Counted from the first letter of the stretch, positions 9,910-55,995 are shown. The stretch is 64,000 nucleotides of DNA from an uncultured Mollicutes bacterium (GCA_945936135.1 CAMESG010000001.1:194748-258747); one strand, 5' to 3'. Notes: generated by a model not told the origin, from the sequence alone. A program made the numbers and translations.

Positions 9910-9927
9910 AGGAAAAAGTATAGGGGT

Positions 9928-10875
9928 TTAAAGCTCAAAGGGGAGGGAGGTCAAGCAGATGTCGCAGACGTGCTTCTTTTGCCCGTAGATCCCCCCGTCG
10001 TGATCGTTATTTCTTTCAAGTTCATCAAGCAACGAAGCAACGTCTTCTCCTTGTTCCCCTTTTTGGAGGATGTCTTCAATCATAGGAAGATCTAAGGACG
10101 CTTTCTTGTAGCGTTCTTCCAAAGAATCATCGAACCTTTCTTCGGTCGTCGGATCCCTCCACGTCATCTTCTTCTCGTTTAAAACATCCAAGGATTCATA
10201 AGGCTTCAACGAAGGGGGCATCATCAAGGAATAGGGCTTGCTCGTCTTGCCCATGATCTTGCGGATCAGTTTCCTCTTTATACCATGACGCGACGCCAAA
10301 ATACGCATTATCAGGCGAAAATCCAAATAGGATTCGTAAAAGGAATCGTCCTTCAAAGGCATAGAGGAACCCGCCATCCAAAGTTTGGACAGAAGGATTC
10401 CGTCTTCCTTGGATAGTTTGGGCAACGCCTTGAAAGAAGAAACCGGGTAATGGTGCTTCTCGGCCAAGGCGCGATCCATCAAGGATTCGAAATAGCCATG
10501 ATAAAAGACGTAAATCCCGCCATACTTCCCATTTTCGTCAAAGCCTGAACGGTAGAAAACATAAGGGTGGACCGCTCGATCCAAGGCGAAATGGGACAAT
10601 AGGCCATAAAGATAGCTAAAGCACTTCTTTTTCTCTTCGCCTCCTAGGCTCGCGGCATAGGCGATCATCTTTCCATAGGCCAAGGAGAGATGGGTATTGT
10701 GCATCAATCCTCCCCAAGGCATGACCTCACCCATGTCATTCCGTTTCCGGAAAGGGATCATGCCGTAGGCCATGAAAGGATCCGGCCCCTCCGAACCAAT
10801 TCTAGCTAAATCGGGATAGGGGCAAGACGAAAGATAGAGATCGGCGAAGATCCGATGCGCGATGGCTGCCGGCAT
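9928..10875 (-). CDS. zinc-dependent phospholipase C-like domain protein (hypothetical)
   Basis: 315 aa with His-rich motifs (HRIFADLY, HFALDRAVHPYVFY) like Zn-PLC-fold proteins. Confidence 0.45.
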   Translation of the reverse strand: MPAAIAHRIFADLYLSSCPYPDLARIGSEGPDPFMAYGMIPFRKRNDMGEVMPWGGLMHNTHLSLAYGKMIAYAASLGGEEKKKCFSYLYGLLSHFALDRAVHPYVFYRSGFDENGKYGGIYVFYHGYFESLMDRALAEKHHYPVSSFKALPKLSKEDGILLSKLWMAGSSMPLKDDSFYESYLDFRLIMRILASRHGIKRKLIRKIMGKTSKPYSLMMPPSLKPYESLDVLNEKKMTWRDPTTEERFDDSLEERYKKASLDLPMIEDILQKGEQGEDVASLLDELERNNDHDGGIYGQKKHVCDICLTSLPFEL

Positions 10876-12311
10876 CAGTCTTCCTCGCCGAGGGCTTCTA
10901 GGCCTTTCGCGATCTTGGTCTTCGTCGTCTTCACGTTCTTGATGGCGAGGAAGATGCCAAGCGAAACGGCGACGCAGACAAGGGCGTAAATTGGGAGTAA
11001 TTCCCAGGTGAAACTAGGCAACAAAAGCAAGGAACCGAGGGCGATCGGGGTGATCGTCTGGGCCGCCATCGAAGAAGCGTAATAGTAGCCCGTGAAGGCA
11101 CCGATCTTCTTCTTGGAGCAAAGCTCGACGACCATCGGGAAGGAATTGATATGCACCAAGGACATGCCAAGGCCCTTGAAGAAGAAAACAATATAGATAT
11201 AGATCGGGAAGGAGCCCGTCGCGGGGATCGTGAAGGTGCAAATCGCCCAGGCAACATAGGCAAGGGCGGTCATGCCCAAACCACTAACGACCGTCCATTT
11301 GCGCCCGATCTTTTCGGCGATCAAGCCGCCAAGGACGAAGCCAAGGACGCTACCAGCGCCGCCAACGATCGTGTTGATCATGTTCGAGGCGGTGCTGCAG
11401 CCTAAGTAATAGATCGTGTAGTTCGCCATGAAGGTCCCGATGCCGTTATCGGCCATGAACCAGAAGAATTCGGCGCCCAAGATCAAATAGAGCATGATGC
11501 GGTTCGCTTGGGTAAGCGGGGCATCGTCGTTGGTGATCTTGTCTTCGATCTCCGCGACCTTTTCGCCGGCATCGAGCTCGTCCTTCAATTTCTCGGCGAG
11601 CTCGTTTTCGCGGATATTGAAGAACAAAACGATCGCAGAGACGATCATGAGGACGCTCGCGACAAGGAAGGGCGCTTCAATCGCCCAGATGTTGTGATAG
11701 GCCCAGGTATCCATCCCGGCTTTGCCGCGACCCAAATAGTCGGACAAAACGAAGACGATGCCGACGGCCATCGCGACGAAACCGCCGATGTAGCCCATGA
11801 TGTTGATGATGCCATTGGCTTTCGAGCGAAGGGGCTTCGGGGTGATGTCCGGCATCAAAGCGACCGCCGGGTTGCGATACATCATGCCCGAAACAACGAC
11901 AACCGCCATGACGCCGATGACGCCCGCGAGGTTGTTGTAATGGAATAAAAGAGGAATGAAGGGCAAAGCGACCGCGCAGAGGAAGGTGCCCATCAAGATG
12001 TACGGCATGCGCTTCCCGATCTTGGTATGGGTCTTGTCGCTAAGCCGCCCAAAGATCGGCATCAAGATAAGCGCTGCTACGTTATCAAGCGCCATGACAA
12101 TGCCGACAAGATATTGCACTTCTTCGCTTCTCTCGGTCGGGTTGATGCCCATTGCGTTGCAGAATAGCTCGCTTAGGAAGGGCGGGCACCAGGAATCGTA
12201 GACCTGCCACATGAGCAAGATGCCAAAAAAGGCAAAACCGATCAGCATCGTCCGCTTCACGTTCAAGCGAAACGGCGCGCCGGCGGTTGCCGCGTCTGTT
12301 TGTTTCTTCAT
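10875..12311 (-). CDS. MFS transporter, glycoside-pentoside-hexuronide:cation symporter-like
   Basis: About 12 TM segments, with a GRLSDKTHTKIGKRMPY loop motif typical of GPH/sucrose-type symporters. ATG at 12309-12311 is preceded by AAAGGAAAT. Confidence 0.75.
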   Translation of the reverse strand: MKKQTDAATAGAPFRLNVKRTMLIGFAFFGILLMWQVYDSWCPPFLSELFCNAMGINPTERSEEVQYLVGIVMALDNVAALILMPIFGRLSDKTHTKIGKRMPYILMGTFLCAVALPFIPLLFHYNNLAGVIGVMAVVVVSGMMYRNPAVALMPDITPKPLRSKANGIINIMGYIGGFVAMAVGIVFVLSDYLGRGKAGMDTWAYHNIWAIEAPFLVASVLMIVSAIVLFFNIRENELAEKLKDELDAGEKVAEIEDKITNDDAPLTQANRIMLYLILGAEFFWFMADNGIGTFMANYTIYYLGCSTASNMINTIVGGAGSVLGFVLGGLIAEKIGRKWTVVSGLGMTALAYVAWAICTFTIPATGSFPIYIYIVFFFKGLGMSLVHINSFPMVVELCSKKKIGAFTGYYYASSMAAQTITPIALGSLLLLPSFTWELLPIYALVCVAVSLGIFLAIKNVKTTKTKIAKGLEALGEED

Positions 12312-13283: not shown

Positions 13284-13519
13284 GATCCATTCCTCTTTTC
13301 TAGGTTCGCCAAAGTTTGGGATTTTCTGTCGTTTGCTTCCACCGCTTCTGCTTTCCAAGGGAGGAAACTTTTGGTTGCCCGTTTGATCTCAACAAGATTT
13401 TACCGCAAATCAGAGGGATCCATGTAGGATTTTCTAAGTAATATTTTGCCTCTACACAAAATTTGATTTGGACCGATTTGGTTTTTTTTGCCGAGAGCGA
13501 AGAGAACCTTAGGTTGCAA

Positions 13520-13545
13520 GGCAAAAGAAAAGGGGCCGAAGCCCC
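13520..13545 (-). terminator. rho-independent terminator after the Wzy_C-like gene
   Basis: Minus-strand hairpin GGGGCTTCGGCCCC followed by TTTTCTTTTG. Confidence 0.5.
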
Positions 13546-13550
13546 ATAGG

Positions 13551-15707
13551 TTAGGATTCAAAGCCCATCGTTGGGTAGAGATAGGTCTTATTGTGTTTGT
13601 ATCTTCTGCGTTCGGCGCGGCGATCGCAGGCGCGGAGTGAATCTTGGAAGCGGCGCTGCTTTGCCTTCAAGGCGCGCTTCGTCAAGAAGATATGCACCTT
13701 GATCTCAGAGCGCTCCTCCTTTAAAGAATAAGGATAATAGGCTTTCTCGTGGAGGCTTGTCGCTTCTAGGAAGAAGAACGACAAGACGATTGGGAGGAAG
13801 AAAGAGGCGACGATCGCGTAACGGCTTTGCATCTCGGCGAAAAGAGAATCGAAGGCATGGACGGCGATCATCGTCGTCAAAGCGATTAAGACATAGGGGA
13901 GGTAGGCGTGACGGAATAGTTTGCCGTTAAAGCCATAGCGCGCTTGACGGGTCGCGGAGCACATCCAGATGAAGGAGAGTAGAGGCAAGGCCAAGGCGTA
14001 ATAGCCATAAGGCAACAACGAAACGGGAATCGCGGCAAAGCAAAGGAGGATCGAGAAGAACCCTTCGACAAAGGCCAAGCCCTTGCGTTCGAAGAACGAC
14101 AAGGCAAAGGCGATGTAAGGAACGCAGAAATAGACGGCCAAGACGGCAAGATGCAACGGAATGCTTTGCAAGATGTCGATCGAATAATGAGCGCCAATAG
14201 GATTAGCGATCGCAAGGAAAGTCAAAGCGAAGGGCGAAAGGATATAGAAGGCAACGGTCGCTTTTCTCGTCGCGGAGAGTTCGTAGCGGACTTTCTTTGG
14301 GAATGAAAGAGAGCCGTAGAACGCTCCATCTTCCGCTTCTCTTCCATAAAGGCGCTCGTAATTATCGGAGAACACGGGAAAGAAGGTCAAAAGGACGACC
14401 ACCAGGCTTTTCGCATCCATCAAGAAGAAATCGGTGGATTCGCTCATGCCATGCATCGCAAGCATGATCGTCAATAGGGCGTAGGTGAAATAGAGTCCGA
14501 CTTTCTTTCTCGCGTTGAGGGCAAGATAGACCAAGAGGATCAAGACGAAGATGCCGCCAAAGATCAAGCCCGCAATGCCGTTGCGAACCAAGATATCGAT
14601 GATGCCATTGTGCGTCCAAGCCGTGAAGCCTTCCGTTCCGGTTTGAAGCGCGTGGTTCAAGGAATTGACGTTACGATAGCCAACGCCAAGCCAAAGCCTC
14701 GCCGGCGTATCGAGTTCCGCGATGCAACCTTGCCAGATGCTGATGCGCGCATCCAAGGTCGCGGTGCTTTCCATGTTCTCCACGAGGTTGTGGACAAATT
14801 TATTGAAACCATCGAAGGCTTTGGGAAGGACGTTCGTATAGCCACCCAAAACCATAAAAGTCGCGGATCCCAAAAGGATCACGGCCCACAAAAGGTTGCG
14901 CAAAGGATGCGATTTGAACGTTTTGAAGAAACGATAGAAAAGATAGACGAGGGCAAAGATCGAGCCAAGGAAGATCGCGGTGCGGGAAAGGCAAAGGACC
15001 ACGAAGAGTTCGAAGACAAGCATCAAAACGTACCAAAAGAAATTTGGGCGAGCTTCGTTCCAAAGGGCGCAAGCGCAAACCCCGAAGAAGAGAAGCGTCC
15101 CGAAGGTATTGCGGTTGTTCGTGAAGGAAAGAAGCCTTACATCCGGGAATTGCTCCAAATTCGAGAAGAAAGAGGCGATGATCTCATGCTCGGCAATCAA
15201 CGACCAAACGCAGGCGGACAAGGCCAAGGCGATCATTACGAAGGCGCAAAACAAAGCGATTCTCCGTCCGCGGGTGACCCTAGGCCCAACCGCGAAGCAA
15301 AGATAAAGCATGCAGACCGAGGCGATAAACGCCATGATCGAACGCATCCGATCCGCTTGGCCGAAGGTATATTCATACCCCGTCTTCAAGGTCAGCGTCT
15401 CGGGGAAAAGAAGGATGCCCCCAATGCCGCAGCCAAGTAGCCCTAGCAACAGGAAATCCATCCACACGGGTTCGCGGTAATGGAAGCGATGCTTCCCGAA
15501 CCAAACAAAGGCGATGAAGCCGATGTAGAAGACCGTGGAGGTCAGATAGTACTCCAAGTCATTCATCCTCGCCGCGATCGAGAAACCCTCGTTCAAGAAA
15601 GGAATTTCGTTGATCAAGAATGCCCCGATGCCTAAGAGAAGGCAAAGGAAGACGCTGGAAAGAAAATAAGGGCTTGGTTTGCGCAATGTAGTCGATGTTG
15701 CTTTCAT
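13551..15707 (-). CDS. large polytopic membrane protein with O-antigen ligase / Wzy_C-like domain
   Basis: More than 15 TM segments, with the Wzy_C-like motif WTHNGIIDILVRNGIAGLIFG. ATG at 15705-15707. The ORF-track extension to 15848 overlaps the tRNAs and is not real. Confidence 0.6.
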   Translation of the reverse strand: MKATSTTLRKPSPYFLSSVFLCLLLGIGAFLINEIPFLNEGFSIAARMNDLEYYLTSTVFYIGFIAFVWFGKHRFHYREPVWMDFLLLGLLGCGIGGILLFPETLTLKTGYEYTFGQADRMRSIMAFIASVCMLYLCFAVGPRVTRGRRIALFCAFVMIALALSACVWSLIAEHEIIASFFSNLEQFPDVRLLSFTNNRNTFGTLLFFGVCACALWNEARPNFFWYVLMLVFELFVVLCLSRTAIFLGSIFALVYLFYRFFKTFKSHPLRNLLWAVILLGSATFMVLGGYTNVLPKAFDGFNKFVHNLVENMESTATLDARISIWQGCIAELDTPARLWLGVGYRNVNSLNHALQTGTEGFTAWTHNGIIDILVRNGIAGLIFGGIFVLILLVYLALNARKKVGLYFTYALLTIMLAMHGMSESTDFFLMDAKSLVVVLLTFFPVFSDNYERLYGREAEDGAFYGSLSFPKKVRYELSATRKATVAFYILSPFALTFLAIANPIGAHYSIDILQSIPLHLAVLAVYFCVPYIAFALSFFERKGLAFVEGFFSILLCFAAIPVSLLPYGYYALALPLLSFIWMCSATRQARYGFNGKLFRHAYLPYVLIALTTMIAVHAFDSLFAEMQSRYAIVASFFLPIVLSFFFLEATSLHEKAYYPYSLKEERSEIKVHIFLTKRALKAKQRRFQDSLRACDRRAERRRYKHNKTYLYPTMGFES

Positions 15708-47743: not shown

Positions 47744-48370
47744 TTAGTTCTTCGATCCCAGGCGGTGGGTCAAAACCGCGAGGGATGAGGCGAGGTTGAC
47801 GTCCTCGATCACGATCGATTCGGGGAGCTCTAGATGCACGGGGGCGAAATTCCAGATCGCCTTGACGCCGGCGCGGACCGCCCTTGAGGCGACTTCCTGC
47901 GCGACCGGGGAAGGGACGGTGAGGATCAAGACGCTCGCGTTGCTTTCGCGAAGCACCTCCTCCATCTTCTCCATCGGGTAGACGACCTTGCCCCCGATCT
48001 TGGCGTAGGCAAGACGAGGAGAGGAATCGACGGCGGCCGCGATCTCCAGCCCCATCTCCGAGAAGGCGGGGAAGTTGAGCAAGGCCCCGCCGAGGTGGCC
48101 CGCCCCCGCAAGGACGGCATTGATCGAAGAACGGTAGCCCAAAAAGGTCTCGAGGTCCTCGATCAATTGGGCGACTTCGCGCCCCTTTTTCGGACGTCCG
48201 GGGACAAGGGAGACGGCCTGGAGGTCTTTGCGGACCTGTTCCTCGCTATAGCCGAGCTTCATGGCGATCTGAGGGGAGGAGACGATGTCGACGCCTTCTT
48301 CCCTCAATTCCATGAAATATTTCAAATAGATGGGGTAACGTTCCAATTGATTCTGCGAATACTTCTTCAC
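47744..48370 (-). CDS. rex: redox-sensing transcriptional repressor Rex (GTG start)
   Basis: Winged-helix N-domain (PIYLKYF...ISSPQIAMKLGYSEEQVRKDL) and Rossmann GAGHLGGAL. The start codon is GTG at 48368-48370, preceded by AGAAAGGAAGG. It is the first gene of the hydrogenase operon. Confidence 0.85.
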   Translation of the reverse strand: MKKYSQNQLERYPIYLKYFMELREEGVDIVSSPQIAMKLGYSEEQVRKDLQAVSLVPGRPKKGREVAQLIEDLETFLGYRSSINAVLAGAGHLGGALLNFPAFSEMGLEIAAAVDSSPRLAYAKIGGKVVYPMEKMEEVLRESNASVLILTVPSPVAQEVASRAVRAGVKAIWNFAPVHLELPESIVIEDVNLASSLAVLTHRLGSKN

Positions 48371-48478
48371 AAGAGCCTTCCTTTCTTTTCTCCGATCGCG
48401 ATGATCAAATCCGTTTCTTGATCGCGGAAAACCGATCGACAGATTGATGATAAAAGGCGGTTAAAGAGATGACAAGAA

Positions 48479-48506
48479 AAATCGATATTTAATTATCGAA
48501 TATCGA
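48479..48506. promoter_or_regulatory. palindromic AT-rich element ATCGATATTTAATTATCGAATATCGA upstream of rex
   Basis: ATCGATATT and AATATCGA form inverted arms. The 16-mer AATTATCGAATATCGA recurs exactly at 52552-52567. Confidence 0.35.
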
Positions 48507-49010
48507 GGGGCAACGAAGATAGGCGAAATAAGACCCGGCATGTTCGCCCTTCTTTCTTGCAAACGAAGGCGTGAACCATGCTGTTTCTTTCCCGACATAC
48601 CGATATTATCATATTCGCCGAGCGTAATCTACCCGAAAATGTAAGGGCTTTCATCGAAGGCGGTTTTCTCGCCGGTTGCCCTTAAATGGCGCTTTTTTAC
48701 TATTGAGTTCCGTTGGCGGTGATGCGTCAGCGCCACGCCAAAAACACCGTCTTCGCGGAATTCACCTCCAAACGGCCCACGCCATACCCCGAGCCGATTC
48801 TCCCCCTGGAGGAAAAGGGGGTCCAGTTCCTCTTTTGTGTTTCTTGAAGGCGATCTTGCAGGCCATTTACACCTCGAAAAAAGGGGACGAAATCGTTCCG
48901 ACCCATCGCGAAGAGGAAGGCAAAGAAATCGCGATTGGTCTCAATTGAACGACGGGTTCGGAGTTGGCGGTCATTGAATTACGCAAGCCGTTTGCAACTC
49001 TCTATCGCTG

Positions 49011-50396
49011 TCATTTAATGCAAAAGGCGGCGTATAAAGGAATTGATTTTATTCCGTTTTCAAATCCGAAATTTTTTTGGGATATTCTGATGGCATATTT
49101 TGGATGATATGTTTTTGCATAGCTTTCCAAACTTCTTGAACGAGTGTTTACGCCGGATTTAACTTCTATTGGAATAACGTTTGCGCCAAGTCTTGTAATG
49201 AAGTCTACCTCGGCATCCGATTTGCTTGTCCAGTAATAGGCTTTCAACCCATTTGCGATAAGCTGGTTGTTTATGTAGTTTTCCGCCAATCCGCCCCTGA
49301 ACTCAAAATCATTAGATTCCATTTCTATATCTTCCATGCGGACATCCTGAGAAGCGCCACACAAACCAACGTCGCCCATGAAAAATTTGAAATCGCTTGT
49401 CGATTTATTGCTTTCAAGCGGAAAAGAAACTTGCTCAAGCCGAAATAACTGACTGGATATTCCTGCGTTGCAAATCCATCGGATTGCTTCTTCATACAAA
49501 GACGCTCTTGCGCCAGTTTTCAATAACTTGTATTGGAACTTTTTGTTTTCCTTTGAAAGCTGTGTAGAAATGTTTTCGAATACAAGCTTCGTTTTTGGTA
49601 TTTCCGTTGCTTTATTGTACTTGCCCATATCATTGAAATATGCTTCGAGAATTTCCTTTTGAATGATACGAACGATCTCTACATTTTTTGTTTCCGCGTA
49701 TTCTTTGACGGCTTCTGGCATTCCGCCAACATACAGATATTGCTTATATAAATCTATTGCCATATCGTGTATCGGAGTCGGCAACGCCACGTTCGAATCA
49801 TATGCTTCTTTTATTTCTTGAATCAAATCAATGTATTTTTCCTTTTGAGCGAGCAAAAACTCTTCGAAATCCATGGGATACATGGTAATCATATCCACCT
49901 TGCCCACGGGGAATGAACTATCCCCTCTATTCACGGAAACGCCAAGCAGTGACCCTGATGCAATGATATGGTATTCATTTGCTTCTTCGTTGAAATACTT
50001 TAAAGAAGTGAGCGCTTGGGGACAGGCTTGTACCTCATCGAAAATAATCAGCGTATGGTTTGGGATAATCTCTTTCCTTTTATATAGGCTGAGCTGCTTA
50101 ACGATTCTTCGGGGATCAAGACTTGTAAAAAAGTCCTTCAACGCTTCCTCTTTTTCAAAGTTGCAATATACATAATTGGAGTATTCTTTTTGTGCAAACA
50201 GATTTACGGTATAGGTTTTTCCAACTTGCCTTGCCCCCTGCAATACTAGCGGCTTTCTTCTCGTTGAGTTTTTCCACTTCTGCAAATCTGCATAAATTTT
50301 TCTATACACAGGTTGTACTCCTTTTCTAACTTTAGACGAATCATACCATACTTCAGCATAAAATTGAATAATATTTACATTATTTTGGAGATACAT
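49011..50396 (-). CDS. AAA+ ATPase (AAA_14-like) / DUF4143-like family protein, in AT-rich island
   Basis: ...PLVLQGARQVGKTYTVNLFAQ (Walker A)...LIIFDEVQ (Walker B)...ASGS... A DUF4143-like C-terminus follows. Local GC is markedly lower than the flanks. The start is uncertain: ATG at 50396 or GTG at 50453. Confidence 0.7.
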   Translation of the reverse strand: MYLQNNVNIIQFYAEVWYDSSKVRKGVQPVYRKIYADLQKWKNSTRRKPLVLQGARQVGKTYTVNLFAQKEYSNYVYCNFEKEEALKDFFTSLDPRRIVKQLSLYKRKEIIPNHTLIIFDEVQACPQALTSLKYFNEEANEYHIIASGSLLGVSVNRGDSSFPVGKVDMITMYPMDFEEFLLAQKEKYIDLIQEIKEAYDSNVALPTPIHDMAIDLYKQYLYVGGMPEAVKEYAETKNVEIVRIIQKEILEAYFNDMGKYNKATEIPKTKLVFENISTQLSKENKKFQYKLLKTGARASLYEEAIRWICNAGISSQLFRLEQVSFPLESNKSTSDFKFFMGDVGLCGASQDVRMEDIEMESNDFEFRGGLAENYINNQLIANGLKAYYWTSKSDAEVDFITRLGANVIPIEVKSGVNTRSRSLESYAKTYHPKYAIRISQKNFGFENGIKSIPLYAAFCIK

Positions 50397-50461
50397 TTTG
50401 TGCAATATTACACTTTTTTGGAGATAAGGCACTTTATCTCGACTTTTCCGCACTCTGTTAC

Positions 50462-50919
50462 TCAGAGGTCGTTCATGTCAATGATCGATAAAATAGCAAT
50501 TATTTGGCAATTCGGCTCGTATATCGACCCTACGGCCAGGCGCATTTCCTCATCGCTCATGCCGGAGGAATAAAGTTTGAGAATCGTCGGAATTCCTCCC
50601 CGAGATCGCATTTCCCGTAGCCGAGGAGCGCTTTCATCTAGGTCCAGAGAAAGGACTCCACCGCCTCTTTCGCGGCCTTCAGCGGTTCGCCTTTGGCTAC
50701 CGCTTCCTTCAATAATTTCGCAAAATTGTCCATGCAAGGCTTCTTCCGGATTTTTCGGCAAACCAATCTTACTAGGAATCCTGCTTTTTCGCGGGCCGGC
50801 GCGATCCCCAAGGGTTCGAGGACATTCTGCCCTGTCGATCTTTGCGCAATATTTCGAACATTCCGGACAAATAGGAAAATTTCCTTTGTGTCAAAAAAGT
50901 CCTGATAACGATGCATCAA
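50462..50919 (-). pseudogene. decayed ORF fragments in two frames (possible IS/transposase remnant)
   Basis: The 93-aa and 99-aa ORFs are contiguous but frame-shifted (…NFAKLLKEAVAKGEPLKAAKEAVESFLWT / LDLDESAPRLREMRSRGGIPTILKLYSSGMSDEEMRLAVG…). No start context is visible. Confidence 0.25.
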
Positions 50920-51503
50920 GACTGGTCATTCAATATGGTGAAGCAAAGGGGCTGCGAAACCCAATTCAACAGTTGCGAGCAGTACCACACCTCGCCCGGT
51001 TTTTCGGCGACGAGGATGTTCCCCTCGAAATGGGCGATCGATGGATCGGTCAAAAGGATGGGCACGATATATTCCCTTAGGTAAAAGTATGGGACATCGT
51101 AAACATAAGGCTTGAACTCCAAGCGATCGCCGACATGGCCTTCATAGATCCCATTCTTAGGATAAAAACCGAAGGATTGGGGCTCTACCTTCGGGTCCAA
51201 GACATGGACCTCGATCGAATCCGAGACTTCGCCGACGAAGGCGGTGACTTTGGTGGATCCGCGCTTCAATCCAACGCAGCACCCTCGCGGTGTCACTTCG
51301 ACATATTCCGGGTTCTCGACTTCGAATTGAATCTTTCCTTCGAGGTTCTCCGTGTAACAGCGAAGCCAGCTGCTTTGTTCCACGAGAACGAACATCGGGC
51401 CAGGATTGACGATCCGCAACGAAGGTGCGGGTTTTGCCGCGCAGGAAGAAACTCCCAAACACATCCCGAGGATGGGAAGAGGGAACAAGATGCGTCGATT
51501 CAT
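50916..51503 (-). CDS. small Ig-like (Big_2-like) lipoprotein, family member 1
   Basis: MNRRILFPLPILGMCLGVSSCAAKP is a lipobox. The C-terminus ...LTDPSIAHFEGNILVAEKPGEV... has a Big_2-like pattern. It is paralogous to 52582-53157 and 53179-53778. Confidence 0.6.
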   Translation of the reverse strand: MNRRILFPLPILGMCLGVSSCAAKPAPSLRIVNPGPMFVLVEQSSWLRCYTENLEGKIQFEVENPEYVEVTPRGCCVGLKRGSTKVTAFVGEVSDSIEVHVLDPKVEPQSFGFYPKNGIYEGHVGDRLEFKPYVYDVPYFYLREYIVPILLTDPSIAHFEGNILVAEKPGEVWYCSQLLNWVSQPLCFTILNDQS

Positions 51504-51722
51504 AACATTTCTCCTTTCTAGGGTCTTAGGACCCATGAGAGCGAATGGAAATCGTATTCGAAGTTGCTTTTGGTCTTCGTCGCCCTCGTGATGATTTTGA
51601 AATCCGTGTACGGGGTTTCGTTCTGAAATTCCAAGAAAGAGAAATTTCCATAGGATTGATAAGATCCGTAGGTGACCCCATTCGCCTGAAGTTCAATGGA
51701 TGGCTCAAGAAAGCTAAATTGA

Positions 51723-52505
51723 TCAGGCGTATACGATGGTTGTGCACGAAAAAGCGAAGTAGAACAGGCGAAAATGGTCGAATGGGGTTGAATCGAAACC
51801 GTTGTCGGTCTGGATCTCTTCGGGCCAATGGCCGAACTTCTTCCTCGCAATCTTCAGAGCACTGACGGTTTTGTACATCGGCTGCTCGTTCGTGAAGTAA
51901 AGAACCCTCTTCCGGGTGCATTCCTCCAGGATGGTGTACTGGTAGAAACGGCCCTCCAGCTGAGGAGCCGTGCAGCTTTTCGCCACGTATTTGACGTCGA
52001 CTTGCCATTTTACGTGGATCCGATCCGGGGCGTGATACGGCTTGTCGTGCGCCTTCTTGGCGGGGACGTAGGGTTTGAAATCTGCGGATTTGAGGATGCG
52101 GAGGACGGTGGACGGCGAGATCTCGACCCCGTCGTGCCGAAGCCTGGCCCAGATCTCGACGAACGAGGCGTCGGGATTGCGGCGCCGAAGCCTTTTTATC
52201 CGTTCCGCGACCTCGGCCTTGGTTTTCCTCGGATGGTCGGATTTGGGGCGGTGCGAGCGGTCGAGCAGGCTTTCCATCGCCCCGTCGAACCTCTTCAACC
52301 AGCGGTAAAGGGAGGCTTTCTTGACGCGGTACATCCCGAGGACCTTCCGAAGGGACCGCCCCGATTCGGTCATCCGGAGGCAGGCGTGGTATTTCGCGCC
52401 CAGATCGACGGGAAGGTAGTTCCTTCCCTCTTGCGGTATCATTGCCATGGGCACTTCCAATGAATGTTTGGTCACACTCATTATAGATAAGATGCCCTTT
52501 TTCAC
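51723..52505 (-). mobile_element. IS-type DDE transposase, 3'-truncated (IS481/IS3-like integrase core)
   Basis: N-terminal HTH ...GRSLRKVLGMYRVKKASLYRWLKRFDG, then an rve core ...WQVDVKYV...IQTDNGFD. The ORF stops right after the second Asp of the DDE triad, and no downstream E-containing segment exists in any frame. Confidence 0.6.
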
Positions 52506-52545
52506 CCTTGGTTTTGTCTCACATCATTTGAAACTGTACAATTCA

Positions 52546-52570
52546 TTATCGAATTATCGAATATCGATGG
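52546..52570. repeat. TTATCGAA TTATCGAA TATCGAT motif (second copy of the 48491-48506 16-mer)
   Basis: Exact 16-bp match AATTATCGAATATCGA in the same orientation, about 45 bp upstream of the transposase fragment. Confidence 0.5.
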
Positions 52571-52581
52571 CCCTTTCGCCC

Positions 52582-53157
52582 TTACCCCAAAATCGTCAAG
52601 GATTGGAAATCGGAAACGAGATTGAGCAGCTTCGCCGCGAAAACGGCTTCCCCCGGCGACTTGGCGACCAAGGTCGTCCCTTCGAAAGAGGCAATCGATG
52701 GATCGCTTACAAGGACCGGGGCCATCTCGGTGCAAAGGTATCGCCATTCCTGCGTTTCGATATAAGGGGAAAGATCGACGCGATCCCCGACTCGGCAAGT
52801 GGCCTTCTTTGGAACCATCCCCCAATCCCCGAAATCCATGTTCGGGTCGATGACCTGCACGGCCACGCTGTCGGATATCTCGCCAATCGACGCGACGACC
52901 CTCGTCGTTCCCGCCTTTTCCCCGGTCAAGAATCCGTACTTATTGACGATGGCATAGGGGGCGCCCTCGATCCGATATTCGATTTCGCCTTCGTAGCCTT
53001 CCGTCAAAACCTGCACTTGTTGGTCGCCCTTTGTAAGCATAACGATCGGGTCCGCGTTGATGATGCGGATGCTGGGCTTCGTGCCGCACGAAGAAAGGGA
53101 CGCGCACAAGCCAAGAAGCCCAAACGCTGCCGAAGGCACGAGGTGTTTTCTCTTCAT
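52582..53157 (-). CDS. small Ig-like lipoprotein, family member 2
   Basis: MKRKHLVPSAAFGLLGLCASLSSCGTKP is a lipobox. ...VSDPSIASFEGTTLVAKSPGEAVF... is shared with the other members. Confidence 0.6.
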   Translation of the reverse strand: MKRKHLVPSAAFGLLGLCASLSSCGTKPSIRIINADPIVMLTKGDQQVQVLTEGYEGEIEYRIEGAPYAIVNKYGFLTGEKAGTTRVVASIGEISDSVAVQVIDPNMDFGDWGMVPKKATCRVGDRVDLSPYIETQEWRYLCTEMAPVLVSDPSIASFEGTTLVAKSPGEAVFAAKLLNLVSDFQSLTILG

Positions 53158-53178: not shown

Positions 53179-53778
53179 TCAAAGCGCGGGCAGAACCGTG
53201 AGCGTCTGAATGTCGGAGACATGGCCCCAAAGTTTCCCCGCGAAGCGCACCTCCCCCGGCGCCTTCGCGACCAAGGTTCTATACTCCAAAGAGGCGACCG
53301 AAGGATCGCTAAAAAGAATCGGCTCAATGTACTCGGTCAGGTATCGCCAGCGAACCTCTCCGATGATCGGAATCAACGGTATTCTTTCCCCGACGCGGCA
53401 AACCTTCCGCAGGGCAAAAAGCCCCCAGCCTTCGGCATACGGGCTCATATTTTGATCCAGGACGTGGATGGTGGCGAAATCCCAGGCATCCTCGCTATAA
53501 ACCACAAGCTCCGCAACGCCTGCCTTCCTGCCCACGATCCAGTAATCTTCGATGAAAACGGCTTGTGAGCTGCAATAATAAGAATGATATATTGGCCCCT
53601 CGACGTTTTCCGCCCAATACTGCAGTTTCACCTTTTGCCCCACGGCCACCGTGATCAAATCGCCGTTCACGATCGTTATCGAAGGCTTCCTTTCCGCGGG
53701 TTTTGAGCAGGAAGCGAGCGAAAGGCAAAGCCCGGTCAAAGCGTAGAAAGCGAAGGGAAGAATGATTTTTTTACGCAT
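53179..53778 (-). CDS. small Ig-like lipoprotein, family member 3
   Basis: MRKKIILPFAFYALTGLCLSLASCSKP is a lipobox. ...FSDPSVASLEYRTLVAKAPGEVRF... is shared with the other members. Confidence 0.6.
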   Translation of the reverse strand: MRKKIILPFAFYALTGLCLSLASCSKPAERKPSITIVNGDLITVAVGQKVKLQYWAENVEGPIYHSYYCSSQAVFIEDYWIVGRKAGVAELVVYSEDAWDFATIHVLDQNMSPYAEGWGLFALRKVCRVGERIPLIPIIGEVRWRYLTEYIEPILFSDPSVASLEYRTLVAKAPGEVRFAGKLWGHVSDIQTLTVLPAL

Positions 53779-54157
53779 AAAGGTTCCTTTCCATCATCAA
53801 GTTCTAACCGTCCAGGCGAGCGAATAGAAACTGCAGGCCTTGGCGCAGCATAGGCACGAAAAATGCGCGGACGCGAGCAAGAAAGCGAAAAGCCCGCTAG
53901 AGGAATGGGCGGGCGACTCGGCAATCTAGGGTCATAAGCGTTGTTCCTTGTTGCCCTTATTCCGCCATACCAAGTGAGGTGAGGAAACGGAGAAGCAAAA
54001 CGTCCCGGAAGGTTTGAACCGCTTCCGTAAGCGGACAGGCGAAGAAAACCGCTTCAGCCTTTCTCTCCGCCCGTAACCCCTGAGACCACTTCATCAAGGG
54101 GTTACAAACGAAAAGCGGCCCTGTTCTCAAGGACCGCCATTCGAATGGAATTGGAGA

Positions 54158-54922
54158 TTATTTGATGTCCCTCTTCCGGACGGTCAGCCATCCTAGCAAG
54201 GGCATCGTCGGCAAGGTCGCGAAGATCGTCACGAGGTTGATCCACCAACCGTTTTCGTTTTTCAAGGCGTTCTCGCCAAAGAGGACCCAGGAGAATTGCG
54301 TTGCCGCCACAGTCAAGGGTTCTTCCGCGAACGCCTGGATCGGCAAATCGATGAGGAAGAGAAGGATGAAGGGAGCAAGGCTTGGGATCAGCAAGCCCAA
54401 AAGCACAGCCCAAACCGCGAGATTGAAGGAAAAAGACATCCATAAATCGAAGGCGATGATGCAGATGCAGCCTAGAAAGGCCCAGACAAAATAGGTCCCG
54501 AATTCCTTATCGATCTCCCAATGCCCCTCCAAGGCGCCCGCGAGGACATAGACGAACATGGACCCGACGGTGATGAAGATCAGGGAAGTGATCGTCCCCA
54601 CGATCCATTTGGCCCAGTAGACCTGCGACTTGCTATAGCCGCGTCCGACGATGTTCTTGATCACGCCGTTGCGGTAATCTTCCCCGATAAAGAAGGGCAG
54701 GAAGATCGCAAGGTAGAAGGTCAACTCATTAAAGCCATAAGAAGACAAGGCGACATCCGCGAAGATCGGATCCGCGTATTCAGGATAGACCACGTTCCCA
54801 ACGTGGGTTGCGACCAACGAGATCGAAGGAGCAAGCAAGGCGATCCCAAAGAGGACCCACAGGATCTTGGACGTCAAGATCTTGCGGAATTCGTAACGAA
54901 GCAAGCGATCCATCTCAATCAC
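54158..54922 (-). CDS. ABC-2 type transporter permease
   Basis: 254 aa with 6 TM segments, immediately downstream of and overlapping the ATPase gene. Confidence 0.7.
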   Translation of the reverse strand: MIEMDRLLRYEFRKILTSKILWVLFGIALLAPSISLVATHVGNVVYPEYADPIFADVALSSYGFNELTFYLAIFLPFFIGEDYRNGVIKNIVGRGYSKSQVYWAKWIVGTITSLIFITVGSMFVYVLAGALEGHWEIDKEFGTYFVWAFLGCICIIAFDLWMSFSFNLAVWAVLLGLLIPSLAPFILLFLIDLPIQAFAEEPLTVAATQFSWVLFGENALKNENGWWINLVTIFATLPTMPLLGWLTVRKRDIK

Positions 54923-55826
54923 CCATCCTTTCGATGAAGAAGTCTTCTAAGCTCTGCCCGTTCTCCGGGTGGACGGATAAGACTTCGATCCCCGCTTTCG
55001 CGAGGCAATCGATGACCGCCGAGACCTGGATTCCCTTGGTTTTCAGCAAGACGCCCTTTTGATCCATCGAATCGCCTTGGACGAAATAGCCCGCTGCTTT
55101 CAAAGCTTCTTTCGCTTCATAGGGGTTCTTGACCTCGACCCTCGTCGCCATCTCGACGGAGCGTTCGAAGTCTTCGACGCGCACTTCTTCCATCAACCGT
55201 CCATCCTTGATCACCCCGAAGACGGTCGCGATCTTCGCGAGTTCGTCGATGATGTGGCTGGAGATCAGGATGCTGACGCCCTTCTCGTGGGCCACGCGCA
55301 TAAGCAATTCGCGCAGCTCCTTGATCCCCGCGGGATCCAAGGCGTTCATCGGCTCGTCCAAGACCAAGAGGTAGGGATCCCCCAATAAGGCGATCGCGAC
55401 CCCAAGGCGCTGCTTCATACCCAAGGAGAAGGCCTTGACCTTCTTCTTTTTGACCTCGCCTAGCCCAACGAAGGAGAGCAATTCATCGATCGTTTGATCG
55501 TTGTCTCCCGTGAGAATGGCCATCCGCTTCATGTTCTCTTTCGCGGTGCCCTGCAAGAATAATCCCGGGGCTTCAATCAAACTCCCGATCCTTTTTCTTG
55601 CTTTCTTGGGGTCGACGTCCGCCCCATATTCGGTCCCATAGGTCACGGAGCCGGAGGTCGGTTCCAATAACCCTAAGACGATTTTCATGAGGGTCGTCTT
55701 GCCTGCCCCGTTTTTGCCGATGAAGCCATAGATGTCGCCTTTGCATAGATGCAAATCAACATCCAAAAGCGCCACGTTTTTCCCGAAGCGCTTCGTCAGA
55801 TGGCTCGTTTGGAGGATGTATTCCAT
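54915..55826 (-). CDS. ABC transporter ATP-binding protein (ABC-2 exporter type)
   Basis: GKNGAGKTT (Walker A), LSLGMKQRLGVA (signature), LLVLDEPMNALD (Walker B), H-loop SSHII. Starts at MEYILQ. Confidence 0.85.
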   Translation of the reverse strand: MEYILQTSHLTKRFGKNVALLDVDLHLCKGDIYGFIGKNGAGKTTLMKIVLGLLEPTSGSVTYGTEYGADVDPKKARKRIGSLIEAPGLFLQGTAKENMKRMAILTGDNDQTIDELLSFVGLGEVKKKKVKAFSLGMKQRLGVAIALLGDPYLLVLDEPMNALDPAGIKELRELLMRVAHEKGVSILISSHIIDELAKIATVFGVIKDGRLMEEVRVEDFERSVEMATRVEVKNPYEAKEALKAAGYFVQGDSMDQKGVLLKTKGIQVSAVIDCLAKAGIEVLSVHPENGQSLEDFFIERMGD

Positions 55827-55995
55827 GGAGGTTGTCCTCGCTTTCCTGCCCAACATTATGAAGGCGCAGCCCCTACCCGTCTAGAAAAAATCGTCGCGCG
55901 AAATCAAGAAATCGGTAAGGGAAGACTGATAATAAAGAAACGATGGGCTTTTTTTGCTTTACAAAAAAAATCCATAAGGTATCTTATGGAACGTT

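Follow-up and report, generated by a model that had tools for sequence, protein, structure and literature searches.

The two exact copies of a 16-mer that flank a 4-kb interval beside the rex-hydrogenase operon are best explained as two versions of that operon's control site, and the interval as a strain-variable patchwork rather than one mobile island; we give this reading a probability of about 0.6. Both copies lie in a stretch of 64,000 nucleotides from an uncultured Mollicutes bacterium (the window), for which the initial annotation had proposed a composite mobile island. We regard the arrangement as ordinary genome plasticity, with a useful by-product in the form of a candidate operator for a divergent Rex clade. 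The features of the region are collected in Table 1.

Table 1. Features between the rex operon and the adjoining lipoprotein array (positions counted from the first letter of the window)
Feature	Position	Strand	Evidence or remark
rex-nuoE-nuoF-hydA operon	43539-48370	-	rex is the first gene
rex	47744-48370	-	NCBIfam Rex NF003994, E=4e-67, above cut-off; Pfam Put_DNA-bind_N and CoA_binding
Promoter-like site of rex	48447-48475	-	Consensus scan, 10/12 matches, best of the region
Left operator dyad, TCGATAA-TTAA-ATATCGA (- strand reading)	48482-48499	-	0 mismatches to TCGRTAW-N4-WTAYCGA
Left 16-mer copy	48491-48506	+	Dyad half-site (48493-48499) plus extra adjoining half-site ATATCGA (48500-48506)
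Non-coding spacer, operator to ATPase stop codon	48507-49010	.	Partial conservation in L027
cre-like palindrome TGTAAGGGCTTTCA, upstream of operator	48640-48653	.	1 mismatch to TGWAANCGNTNWCA
AT-rich cassette: AAA_14/DUF4143 ATPase with ~120-nt leader	49011-50435	-	Pfam, PADLOC; GC 0.39, z=4.2
Fast-evolving non-coding stretch with two "ORF stubs" (50462-50761, 50638-50919)	50436-50897	.	
Terminator-like hairpin and T-run, end of lipoprotein gene	50898-50923	-	
Lipoprotein gene, 195 aa	50916-51503	-	Paralogue of 52582-53157 and 53179-53778; weak Big_2 match
S8 peptidase 3' remnant, 95 codons	51518-51803	-	556-aa gene intact in L004 and L027
IS481-like IS, 5' two-thirds	51804-52540	-	HTH_32 and partial rve
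Spacer, lipoprotein stop codon to IS end, with right operator copy	52541-52581	-	
Lipoprotein gene, 191 aa	52582-53157	-	rex directly next in L114

The rex control region

The 16-mer AATTATCGAATATCGA occurs exactly twice in the 64-kb window, at 48491-48506 and 52552-52567, both on the plus strand. A window search thereby confirmed the earlier count and orientation, and allowing up to 3 mismatches revealed no third copy. The left copy had been placed within a palindrome, and it does form part of a perfect 18-bp dyad, which ends 6 nt upstream of the -35 box of rex (TTGTCA, 48475-48470); a 17-nt spacer separates this box from the -10 box TATCAT (48452-48447). The dyad is unchanged in two relatives, L027 and L004. 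A cre-like palindrome upstream of the operator is one of two such sites in the window and belongs to a second exact 16-mer pair, the partner copy being at 43360. The spacer 48507-49010 contains no family match and no integrase remnant.

At up to 2 mismatches and within 250 nt upstream of rex, the dyad is present in 51 of 80 related loci from many taxa; it is 40 times as dense there as across the other 1.03 Mb of these loci. As is characteristic of the Rex operator (ROP), it is promoter-proximal, 18 bp long and kept across relatives. Only four of the 80 loci have the canonical Rex box (TTGTGAA/TTGTTAA) upstream of rex, and a search of the window allowing up to 2 mismatches found none. Because the 7-4-7 dyad precedes rex in so many loci, it is probably a non-canonical Rex operator, binding being assigned from position and conservation. 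The initial annotation had offered, as its alternative, a transcription-factor operator shared by the rex promoter and an IS promoter. The first part of that suggestion agrees with the occurrence of the dyad upstream of rex and its 40-fold enrichment; the second part does not stand, as the right motif lies outside the IS and is no promoter element of it.

The operator would thus comprise the 18-bp dyad TCGRTAW-N4-WTAYCGA and one extra half-site alongside. The divergent Rex repressor most likely binds the dyad, which, judging from its position and conservation, would provide NADH-responsive autoregulation. The left copy (48482-48506) would be the working operator, and the right copy (52543-52567) its second allele.

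Significance of the repeat

One exact 16-mer pair is by itself weak evidence. The window contains seven exact direct 16-mer pairs, representing five independent events, and dinucleotide shuffles give an expectation of about 1.0 pair per window. Both 16-mer sites are also internally repetitive, and the copies might be unrelated AT-rich, low-complexity stretches that match by accident. We consider this unlikely. Clusters of three TATCGA/TCGATA half-sites occur at the two 16-mer places and nowhere else in the 64 kb, and in L027 they are again confined to the same two places. We estimate at ~0.01 the probability that five random pairs would overlap one specific 31-nt operator, and in the related contig L114 the right-copy sequence sits at the position of the rex operator with identical promoter spacing. 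The likeness around the two 16-mers spans 25 of 31 positions (48479-48509 and 52540-52570). No extended homology was found in the flanks beyond the 16-mer, so a common origin by duplication receives no support from them. Taken with the relatives, the comparative data indicate that the pair is meaningful.

The empty site and other relatives

The search for an empty site, proposed earlier as a check, was successful in L114, a 7.1-kb short-read metagenome contig in which a lipoprotein gene is joined to the rex promoter through one motif copy (gene order ABC, lipo199, lipo191, single motif, rex, nuoE). Window positions 57685-52541 correspond to L114 23-5168 at 98.8%, and 48369-46544 to L114 5278-7103; the ~99% identity of the contig to the window holds as far as 52541 and resumes at nuoE, and the 4,061 bp between the 16-mer copies are absent. 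The motif of L114 is of the right-copy type, lies at the same 12-nt distance from TTCTTG, and is the sole dyad upstream of rex. The promoter elements TTCTTG and TTTATCATCAA are found again, and the L114 promoter is significantly similar to that of the window (9 of 500 shuffles attain the observed score). Since the right copy stands directly before rex without the 4.06 kb, the interval is a real presence/absence block, with a copy of the probable operator at either end.

The identity profile of the two sequences runs from ~99% to 79, 92 and 94% across rex and returns to 98-99%; the DNA-binding region of Rex is the same in both alleles. The window rex allele matches that of the outgroup L027 at 97-100%, a resemblance which suggests that L114 is the recombinant. 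A second contig is indexed as having these neighbours. It may also be that the assembly of L114 joined two strains within 52541-52686, a stretch of 146 identical nt.

A distance of 6861 bp separates the two motifs in L027, and the sequence between them differs from that of the window by three independent indels. Distant relatives have ABC transporter genes directly before rex, with a spacer of only ~175-240 nt. The order in L029 is ABC ATPase (53% identity), permease, 175 nt, rex, nuoE, and that in L028 is similar. The absence of the block from these relatives suggests that it is an insertion; as to the direction of the event, there are pointers both to gain and to loss.

Contents of the interval

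The GC content is 0.36-0.41 across ~49000-50400, against 0.55-0.63 in the rex-hydrogenase genes, and the tetranucleotide deviation at 49001-50400 reaches z=4.2. By the latter measure 50.4-52.6 kb is native (z between -0.5 and 0.5). The compositional anomaly noted earlier is therefore real, but is limited to the ATPase gene and does not extend over the whole interval.

The CDS of the ATPase runs from 49011 to 50309, or to 50396 if the upstream ATG is used; the real start is probably the GTG at 50309, yielding 432 aa, as homologues have 431-433 aa. The PADLOC HMM PDC-S01 matches residues 31-461 over profile positions 4-433 of 439 (E=1.7e-167). DNA homology to the nearest relatives, which reside in unrelated contexts in genomes of 25-29% GC, spans exactly 49013-50426/50435. 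The closest homologue (L110, 89% aa) is located beside a degraded phage-type integrase in another genome. A second copy of PDC-S01 type, 22% identical, lies 8 kb away. Of the ATPase cassette at 49011-50435, L027 retains just the leader and the last ~20 codons. In PDC-S01 a PD-(D/E)XK-like domain, DUF4143, is fused to an AAA_14 ATPase. It is a candidate defence system with experimental validation pending, and is the fourth commonest "defence" call in prokaryotes (PMC12988326). We consider the gene a horizontally acquired candidate anti-phage gene.

The adjacent stretch 50436-50897 is 79-81% identical to L027 vs 95-98% in neighbouring genes, and L027 carries a 2.1-kb insertion at ~50873. The two stubs here had been read as frame-shifted, decayed ORFs; they are open frames without a Pfam family match, situated downstream of a terminator-like hairpin, and no sign of gene decay was found. 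The lipoprotein paralogue reported earlier is present, its paralogy being based on families D1-D3. Beside it lies a remnant of a subtilisin-like S8 peptidase, which the earlier description had not included.

The transposase (52445 to 51804, minus strand) was correctly said to stop just after DNG: it ends at 51803/51804 after TDNG, past the second catalytic Asp, and is without the catalytic Glu. Its rve match is partial (profile positions 6-75 of 102). The outer inverted repeat of the element (TGTACAGTTTCAAATGATGTGAGAC on the minus strand) is found at 52516-52540, and a related IS has the same TCAAATGATGTGAGAC end. The best NCBIfam model of the transposase is IS481, with the full profile matched; against a curated cut-off of 224 bits, the intact relative P0002 reaches 156 and the window fragment 95. 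Both L027 and L004 carry an intact IS together with the intact S8 gene. In L027 the IS is ~1.07 kb long and possesses imperfect terminal inverted repeats beginning TGT (16 of 19 positions match, or 19 of 25 when extended); its target duplication, CTACA vs CTAACA, is ambiguous.

Mobile elements

The main reading of the initial annotation was an integrative island, for which the two 16-mers would serve as attL and attR. The same-orientation repeats at both ends and the one-copy empty site would fit, as would the AT-rich cargo and the integrase remains beside the ATPase homologue of L110. However, the L114 site has right-copy bases together with a diverged promoter and rex. Foreign composition covers just 1.4 kb (49.0-50.4 kb), which does not point to movement of the whole interval as a unit; ATPase homology elsewhere stops well short of the repeats, at 49013 and 50435, and the remaining interval is made up of paralogues of the adjoining chromosomal array. 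The repeat is not a tRNA, tmRNA or conserved gene-end target but a conserved promoter-proximal operator found at 51 loci in many taxa. No integrase or recombinase gene or remnant was detected in 48.3-53.2 kb with Pfam, NCBIfam and PADLOC or by tblastn with the L110 fragments; no tRNA lies within 13 kb, no tmRNA was found, and Rfam gave no matches. We judge an att-flanked island to be very improbable.

A transposon footprint, in which the repeats would be a target-site duplication or mark the ends of a composite element made by the IS, is in our view also very improbable. A DDE transposase fragment does lie at one end of the interval, and the L114 homology ends precisely at the IS terminus (52540/52541). 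Against this, the IS is a single copy in the window, with none by the left 16-mer; the right 16-mer is separated from the IS end by 11 nt (52552 vs 52540) and does not abut the inverted repeat; and on its inner side the intact IS of L027 has the S8 promoter region and no motif. Target duplications of this IS family are 4-15 bp in the ISfinder descriptions, a range that the present repeat, of at least 16 bases, exceeds. With one IS copy, only the ATPase cassette foreign and three internal differences in L027, we have abandoned the composite island, and with it the att or target-duplication interpretation of its ends.

The right copy and assembly of the interval

Read on the minus strand, the right copy is TCGATAT-TCGATAA-TTCG-ATAATGA, with the dyad at 52543-52560. 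This dyad is weak: both of its 2 mismatches break the CG core, and matches as poor occur by chance about once per 10 kb. The window, L027, L113 and L114 share the 27-nt motif without change, and in L114 these 27 nt stand before the rex promoter.

A tentative alternative is that both copies are working operators of one regulator, serving rex-hyd and the S8-peptidase/lipoprotein operon that once stood next to the right copy, and that the block-less haplotype arose by recombination between the short direct repeats. With the IS removed, the right copy of L027 would precede the S8 start codon by ~114 nt, and the left copy of that genome lies 129 nt upstream of rex; relatives have arrays of direct and inverted half-sites upstream of rex, and the identity of the 27-nt motif is consistent with function. 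Two direct repeats enclosing a block, vs a single repeat, is also the classic footprint of repeat-mediated deletion. However, the L114 junction retains 11-12 right-copy-specific bases beyond the 16-mer, and so a crossover inside the 16-mer common to both copies, in a genome like the window, does not account for it. No such motif accompanies the two remaining S8 modules of L027. The right motif is found ~50 nt before the -10 region of the S8 gene and not over the promoter, and every block-bearing genome seen tolerates an IS that separates this motif from the S8 gene. We slightly favour the right copy as an orphaned remnant of the rex control region.

Under the preferred reading, that of two versions of the rex control site and a patchwork between them, the interval would be one of two haplotypes swapped by ordinary recombination, with no site-specific element, and a diverged tract, of 79-94% DNA identity in a ~99% background, reaches from the operator across rex. 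One component of the block would be an S8-peptidase/lipoprotein module, a member of the tandem paralogous array. An IS481-like element would have inserted beside the right operator copy, and a 1.8-kb deletion would have taken the 3' end of the IS and five-sixths of the peptidase gene, leaving the junction 51803/51804. The AT-rich single-gene PDC-S01 ATPase cassette (49011-50435) would have arrived from a low-GC donor; the lineage-mate L027 would later have lost it through an internal deletion. From the sequences compared, these events appear independent, the block having been assembled within the short spacer between rex and the ABC genes.

Comparison with known systems

This locus resembles integrase-mediated islands in having direct repeats on either side, of which the empty site of a near-identical strain has one. 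It differs from them in that no recombinase and no tRNA target are present, the repeat is a probable promoter operator, the content is mosaic and mostly native, and the two haplotypes are also separated by a diverged tract through rex. The IS resembles the IS481 family in its HTH_32 and rve DDE transposase and terminal inverted repeats; it differs in its score, which is below the cut-off, in the loss of the catalytic Glu and 3' end from the window copy, and in that the L027 IS has no convincing target duplication. The ATPase has the AAA_14 and DUF4143 domains and the full-length HMM match of the PADLOC candidate PDC-S01, and is here a single, compositionally foreign gene with homologues elsewhere in unrelated contexts.

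The canonical Rex wing motif is FG..G.RG.GY, from which the wing here, VSLVPGRPKKGR, differs. The half-site is TCGRTAW, whereas every characterised Rex box has TTGTGAA or TTGTTAA (consensus as quoted in PMC8457756); a description of a TCGRTAW-type motif was not found in the literature consulted. The extra direct half-sites are also unlike the known ROP, and Clostridia relatives show 14-nt phased arrays. Like the Rex of known systems, the window protein exceeds the NCBIfam Rex cut-off. Like the Rex operator (ROP, or Rex box) of Firmicutes, the window dyad is an 18-bp inverted repeat of 7-4-7 architecture beside the rex promoter, and, as in the autoregulated rex-hydrogenase operons of that phylum, rex shares its transcription unit with the genes of an NADH-linked [FeFe]-hydrogenase (NuoE/NuoF/HydA-like).

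Gene layout and composition

Every gene of the region lies on the minus strand (see table). The initial annotation had proposed a composite mobile island of foreign composition beside the rex-hydrogenase operon, bounded by two copies of a 16-mer. The AT-rich dip is real at the ATPase gene, GC being 0.36-0.41 over ~49.0-50.4 kb as against 0.55-0.63 in the rex-hydrogenase genes; the rest of the interval is native, 50.4-52.6 kb included by tetranucleotide distance. Across the 64 kb, tetranucleotide distance singles out just two stretches, this ATPase gene (z=4.2) and a further ATPase gene at 57.6-58.9 kb (z=4.4).

Features between the hydrogenase genes and the ABC transporter, in window coordinates
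Feature	Position	Strand	Remark
hydA-like gene	43539-45341	-	
nuoF-like gene	45359-47233	-	
nuoE-like gene	47233-47715	-	
rex	47744-48370	-	NCBIfam Rex match
rex promoter-like site	48447-48475		best promoter match in region; left motif adjoins
16-mer, left motif	48491-48506	+	
non-coding DNA, ~500 nt	between left motif and ATPase gene		
AAA_14/DUF4143 ATPase	49011-50309, or to 50396	-	
non-coding DNA, ~460 nt	between ATPase and lipoprotein hairpin		holds the "ORF stubs" of the initial annotation
terminator-like hairpin	between "ORF stub" stretch and 195-aa lipoprotein gene		
lipoprotein gene, 195 aa	50916-51503	-	
95-codon stub	51518-51803	-	S8 peptidase 3' end
transposase fragment	51804-52445	-	
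16-mer, right motif	52552-52567	+	between transposase fragment and lipoprotein gene 52582-53157
two further lipoprotein paralogues	52582-53157, 53179-53778	-	
ABC transporter	54158-55856	-	

The repeated motif

The 16-mer AATTATCGAATATCGA does occur exactly twice in the window in the same orientation, with no further copy there even at <=3 mismatches. The likeness of the two sites reaches 25 of 31 positions, and no extended homology was found between their flanks. Seven exact direct 16-mer pairs, representing five independent events, are present in the window and about one in its dinucleotide shuffles; taken alone, the exact pair is little evidence. Clusters of three half-sites (TATCGA/TCGATA) are found in the window at these two places only, and the same is true of L027, a syntenic locus from a related genome. 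A role for the motif as a general mark of the junctions between S8 peptidase/lipoprotein modules was ruled out, since other such junctions in L027 are without it.

A second exact 16-mer pair, AAATGTAAGGGCTTTC (43360-43375 and 48637-48652), brackets the rex-hydrogenase operon. The copy remote from rex lies ~80 nt upstream of a 612-aa gene (41446-43284). A cre-like palindrome, TGTAAGGGCTTTCA, occupies 48640-48653 and has one mismatch to TGWAANCGNTNWCA; there are only two such sites in the window, and cre-like sites upstream of rex also occur in relatives.

A candidate Rex operator

A scan of species-representative genomes gave 80 loci encoding a Rex 41-71% identical to that of the window. Within 250 nt upstream of rex, 51 of the 80 carry the inverted repeat TCGRTAW-N4-WTAYCGA with <=2 mismatches, a 40-fold enrichment (80 matches in 20 kb vs 102 in the other 1.03 Mb), and these dyads frequently stand in two or three copies at a 14-nt phase. 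The canonical Rex box TTGTKAA-N4-TTMACAA precedes rex in just four of the 80 loci, and the window has none. The left motif, which reads TCGATAT-TCGATAA-TTAA-ATATCGA on the gene strand, with 6 nt between its end and the downstream -35 box, has no mismatch to the new consensus. The alternative offered in the initial annotation, a transcription-factor operator, is thus supported as regards the nature of the motif, both by this exact fit and by the 51 loci. NCBIfam confirms the window protein as a genuine Rex; its wing is divergent, and we infer from autoregulation that Rex binds the dyad.

Rex_1799, the second Rex of C. thermocellum, shares just 34-36% identity with characterised Rex proteins, and no motif is known for it (PMC8457756). 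The Acetivibrio locus of the set, L105, has the new dyad. The literature searched gave no account of the dyad and no binding data for Rex_1799.

In Clostridia loci (L041-L105), dyad pairs or triplets upstream of rex are exactly 14 nt apart; they have the central ATATCGATAT in common, and adjacent dyads overlap by the TCGA core. A third dyad-like site in the window, TCGGTAA-GGGA-AGACTGA (55912-55929; two mismatches), is located in the intergenic region from which the ABC transporter operon and a 463-aa gene diverge, and its half-sites are kept in L027 (1139) and in the related contig L114 (1780).

The insertion sequence and the peptidase remnant

The transposase halts after the DNG of its catalytic triad, as had been noted. 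Its nearest relative (P0002; 86% aa), an intact protein of 316 aa with the NCBI label "Candidatus Enteromonas sp.", pointed to L027. There the IS is complete, ~1.07 kb with inverted repeats at 9915-9933 and 10960-10978, and lies between the 191-aa lipoprotein gene and an intact gene for an S8 (subtilisin-like) peptidase. A strain contig (L004; 98.9% identical) follows window 46074-51803 and beyond it runs into an intact 556-aa S8 peptidase gene, of which the window keeps the 3' end in the 95-codon stub. L027 10628-12452 is absent from the window; a single 1.8-kb deletion therefore joined the IS, right after TDNG, to what remains of the peptidase gene, its last sixth, and so accounts for the premature end of the transposase. 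The catalytic Glu, present in P0002, is gone from the window copy. The best NCBIfam model is IS481, at 156 bits below the cut-off of 224.

The outer end of the IS, set from the intact L027 copy and from a related IS whose contigs start at the same end, is window 52540 (TGTACAGTTTCAAATGATGTGAGAC on the minus strand); this related IS has that end in unrelated contexts. The right 16-mer starts 11 nt outside the IS, so placement of the 16-mer within the IS inverted repeat was ruled out.

The ATPase cassette

The ATPase matches PDC-S01, a PADLOC phage-defence candidate, over its full length (E=1.7e-167). PDC-S01 is a single-gene candidate whose product is an ATPase with a fused PD-(D/E)XK-superfamily domain; it was discovered by "guilt by embedding", ranks fourth among defence calls by frequency in prokaryotes, and is a candidate for a defence role, experimental validation being still to come (PMC12988326). 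The ATPase family is huge, with at least 8000 matches at E<=1e-20 and a usual length of 431-433 aa among the matches listed. The closest relatives (89, 78 and 77% aa) have unrelated neighbourhoods in genomes with 25-29% GC. At the DNA level the homology to them spans window 49013-50426/50435 and no more, i.e., the gene with a ~120-nt leader. The foreign unit is therefore a 1.4-kb single-gene cassette with its ends far from the 16-mers. In L027 the leader and the final ~20 codons survive, the body of the gene having been deleted internally; L027 was therefore ruled out as a pre-insertion empty site, and the cassette must predate the split between the window and L027 genomes.

Unrelated host genomes share not just the gene but also its leader (50310-50440), in which there are direct repeats at 50375-50393 and 50408-50426 as well as a palindrome, GAGATAAAGTGCCTTATCTC; the leader may thus have a regulatory role for the cassette. 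The second AT-rich ATPase (57571-58869, minus strand; AAA_14/DUF4143, GC 0.35), 8 kb away, is also a PDC-S01 match and shares just 22% identity with the first. A genome with 28% GC has two PDC-S01-type ATPase genes, one 78% identical to the window ATPase, in tandem beside diaminopimelate-pathway genes (L108 6001-9015); this is in keeping with single-gene cassettes of the kind inserting often and independently.

The spacer upstream of rex

In two more distant loci (L028 and L029; Rex ~70% identical) the ABC transporter genes directly precede rex across a spacer of 175-240 nt with TATCGR arrays; the DNA at 48.5-54.15 kb is therefore a lineage-specific filling of this spacer. L027 has three S8/lipoprotein modules where the window has remnants, and the modules form a tandem array that expands and contracts. 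The rex-to-lipoprotein spacer was compared with L027 by local BLAST, global MAFFT alignment being uninformative with its rearranged blocks.

L027 3163-5432 and 5756-8619 are missing from the window (53629-54160, against L027 3163-8619), where the array has contracted; an S8 start stub (ATGACCC...) still stands upstream of the 199-aa lipoprotein gene. L027 in turn has a 2.1-kb AT-rich insertion (13382-15510), sited at about window 50873, just after the lipoprotein terminator, and flanked by short repeats of the ACAAAGGA type. Its 440-aa ORF product gave weak C-terminal winged-helix matches to Csa3, CasR and WYL-type models and matched no Pfam family.

A haplotype without the block

An empty-site variant was found in L114, a short-read metagenome contig reached via a homologue of the 191-aa lipoprotein (P0170; 94% aa). 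Its order is ABC transporter, 199-aa lipoprotein gene, 191-aa lipoprotein gene, 150 nt, rex and nuoE. Window 57685-52541 corresponds to L114 23-5168 (98.8%) and window 48369-46544 to L114 5278-7103; the 4,061 bp between the motifs are missing, and a single motif remains. The right motif reads TCGATAT-TCGATAA-TTCG-ATAATGA on the gene strand, that is, two perfect half-sites and a degenerate third, and scores as a dyad with two mismatches. The sole L114 motif, and the only dyad upstream of its rex, is this right-copy version, identical over 27 nt and then continuing GTTCTTGCC...TTTATCATCAA. From the 16-mer to TTCTTG is 12 nt both here and in the left copy of the window. The likeness of L114 to the rex promoter stretch of the window is significant (score 25 vs 16.6 +/- 2.9, reached by 9 of 500 shuffles); between the L114 junction and the DNA upstream of S8 there is no significant likeness (72 of 500 shuffles reach the score). 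The position of the right-copy version before the L114 rex promoter suggests that the right copy is an allele of the candidate rex operator.

On the left, identity between window and L114 is ~99%, falling once to 91% within the 191-aa lipoprotein gene; the rex 5' UTRs cannot be aligned, identity across rex is 79%, 92% and 94%, and from nuoE onward it is 98-99%. The two Rex proteins are 92% identical, with identical helix-turn-helix and wing regions. The two contigs thus represent one species with alternative haplotypes, set apart by the block and by a diverged tract of recombination running through operator, promoter and rex. One caveat is that L114 may be a chimeric assembly across a 146-nt identical stretch; the contig index names a second contig with the same neighbours. 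No further structural variants were found among contigs encoding an identical NuoE. A scan of metagenome contigs with the L114 Rex added further candidate operators and yielded no close relative, the best match being 65% identical.

Origin of the block

Part of the island proposal stands: the block is strain-variable, is bounded by the motif, and its absence leaves one motif copy. The mechanism does not. An attL/attR or target-duplication origin is not borne out, for the interval holds no recombinase gene or remnant, Rfam and tRNA scans found nothing, and the IS end does not abut the repeat; native composition save for a cassette with its own boundaries also speaks against an att-flanked island. 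A transposon-made island was ruled out on the same IS end and on the presence of one IS fragment only. No remnants of lipoprotein, S8 or integrase genes were found in the two non-coding stretches. The interval holds at least four independent events, and the repeats are, to judge from sequence, putative operator copies.

Ordinary recombination between haplotypes would explain the block most economically, a tract with one end at the operator having been imported or lost. The block may have been brought in with the left-type operator and rex allele, displacing an older rex control region of which the right copy would be an orphaned remnant. This version is slightly favoured because the right copy is colinear with the complete operator-promoter in L114 and distant relatives are without the block. 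Less favoured is a block-less haplotype made by deletion between two working operators; that L114 retains 11-12 right-copy-specific bases beyond the 16-mer speaks against it.

For the island question the weight of this is small: it is ordinary genome plasticity, the usual turnover of ISs, pseudogenes and single-gene defence candidates at an intergenic site that varies in this uncultured gut bacterium. It does caution against taking repeats around variable DNA for att sites, since they can be duplicated regulatory sites even where an empty-site variant exists. The by-product of most interest is the candidate non-canonical Rex operator at 51 loci, a clade motif not described in the literature searched, which could aid reconstruction of the hydrogen-metabolism regulon in Clostridia and RF39-like gut bacteria. 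Tentatively, with a probability of roughly 0.3, we propose that the dyad is the undescribed operator of a divergent Rex clade, that of Rex_1799, and that its copies served as recombination joints in gain or loss of the defence-candidate block. If so, an orphan operator could titrate Rex or place a secreted protease/lipoprotein operon under redox control. The dyad shares the 7-4-7 geometry of known Rex boxes and differs from them in its half-site.
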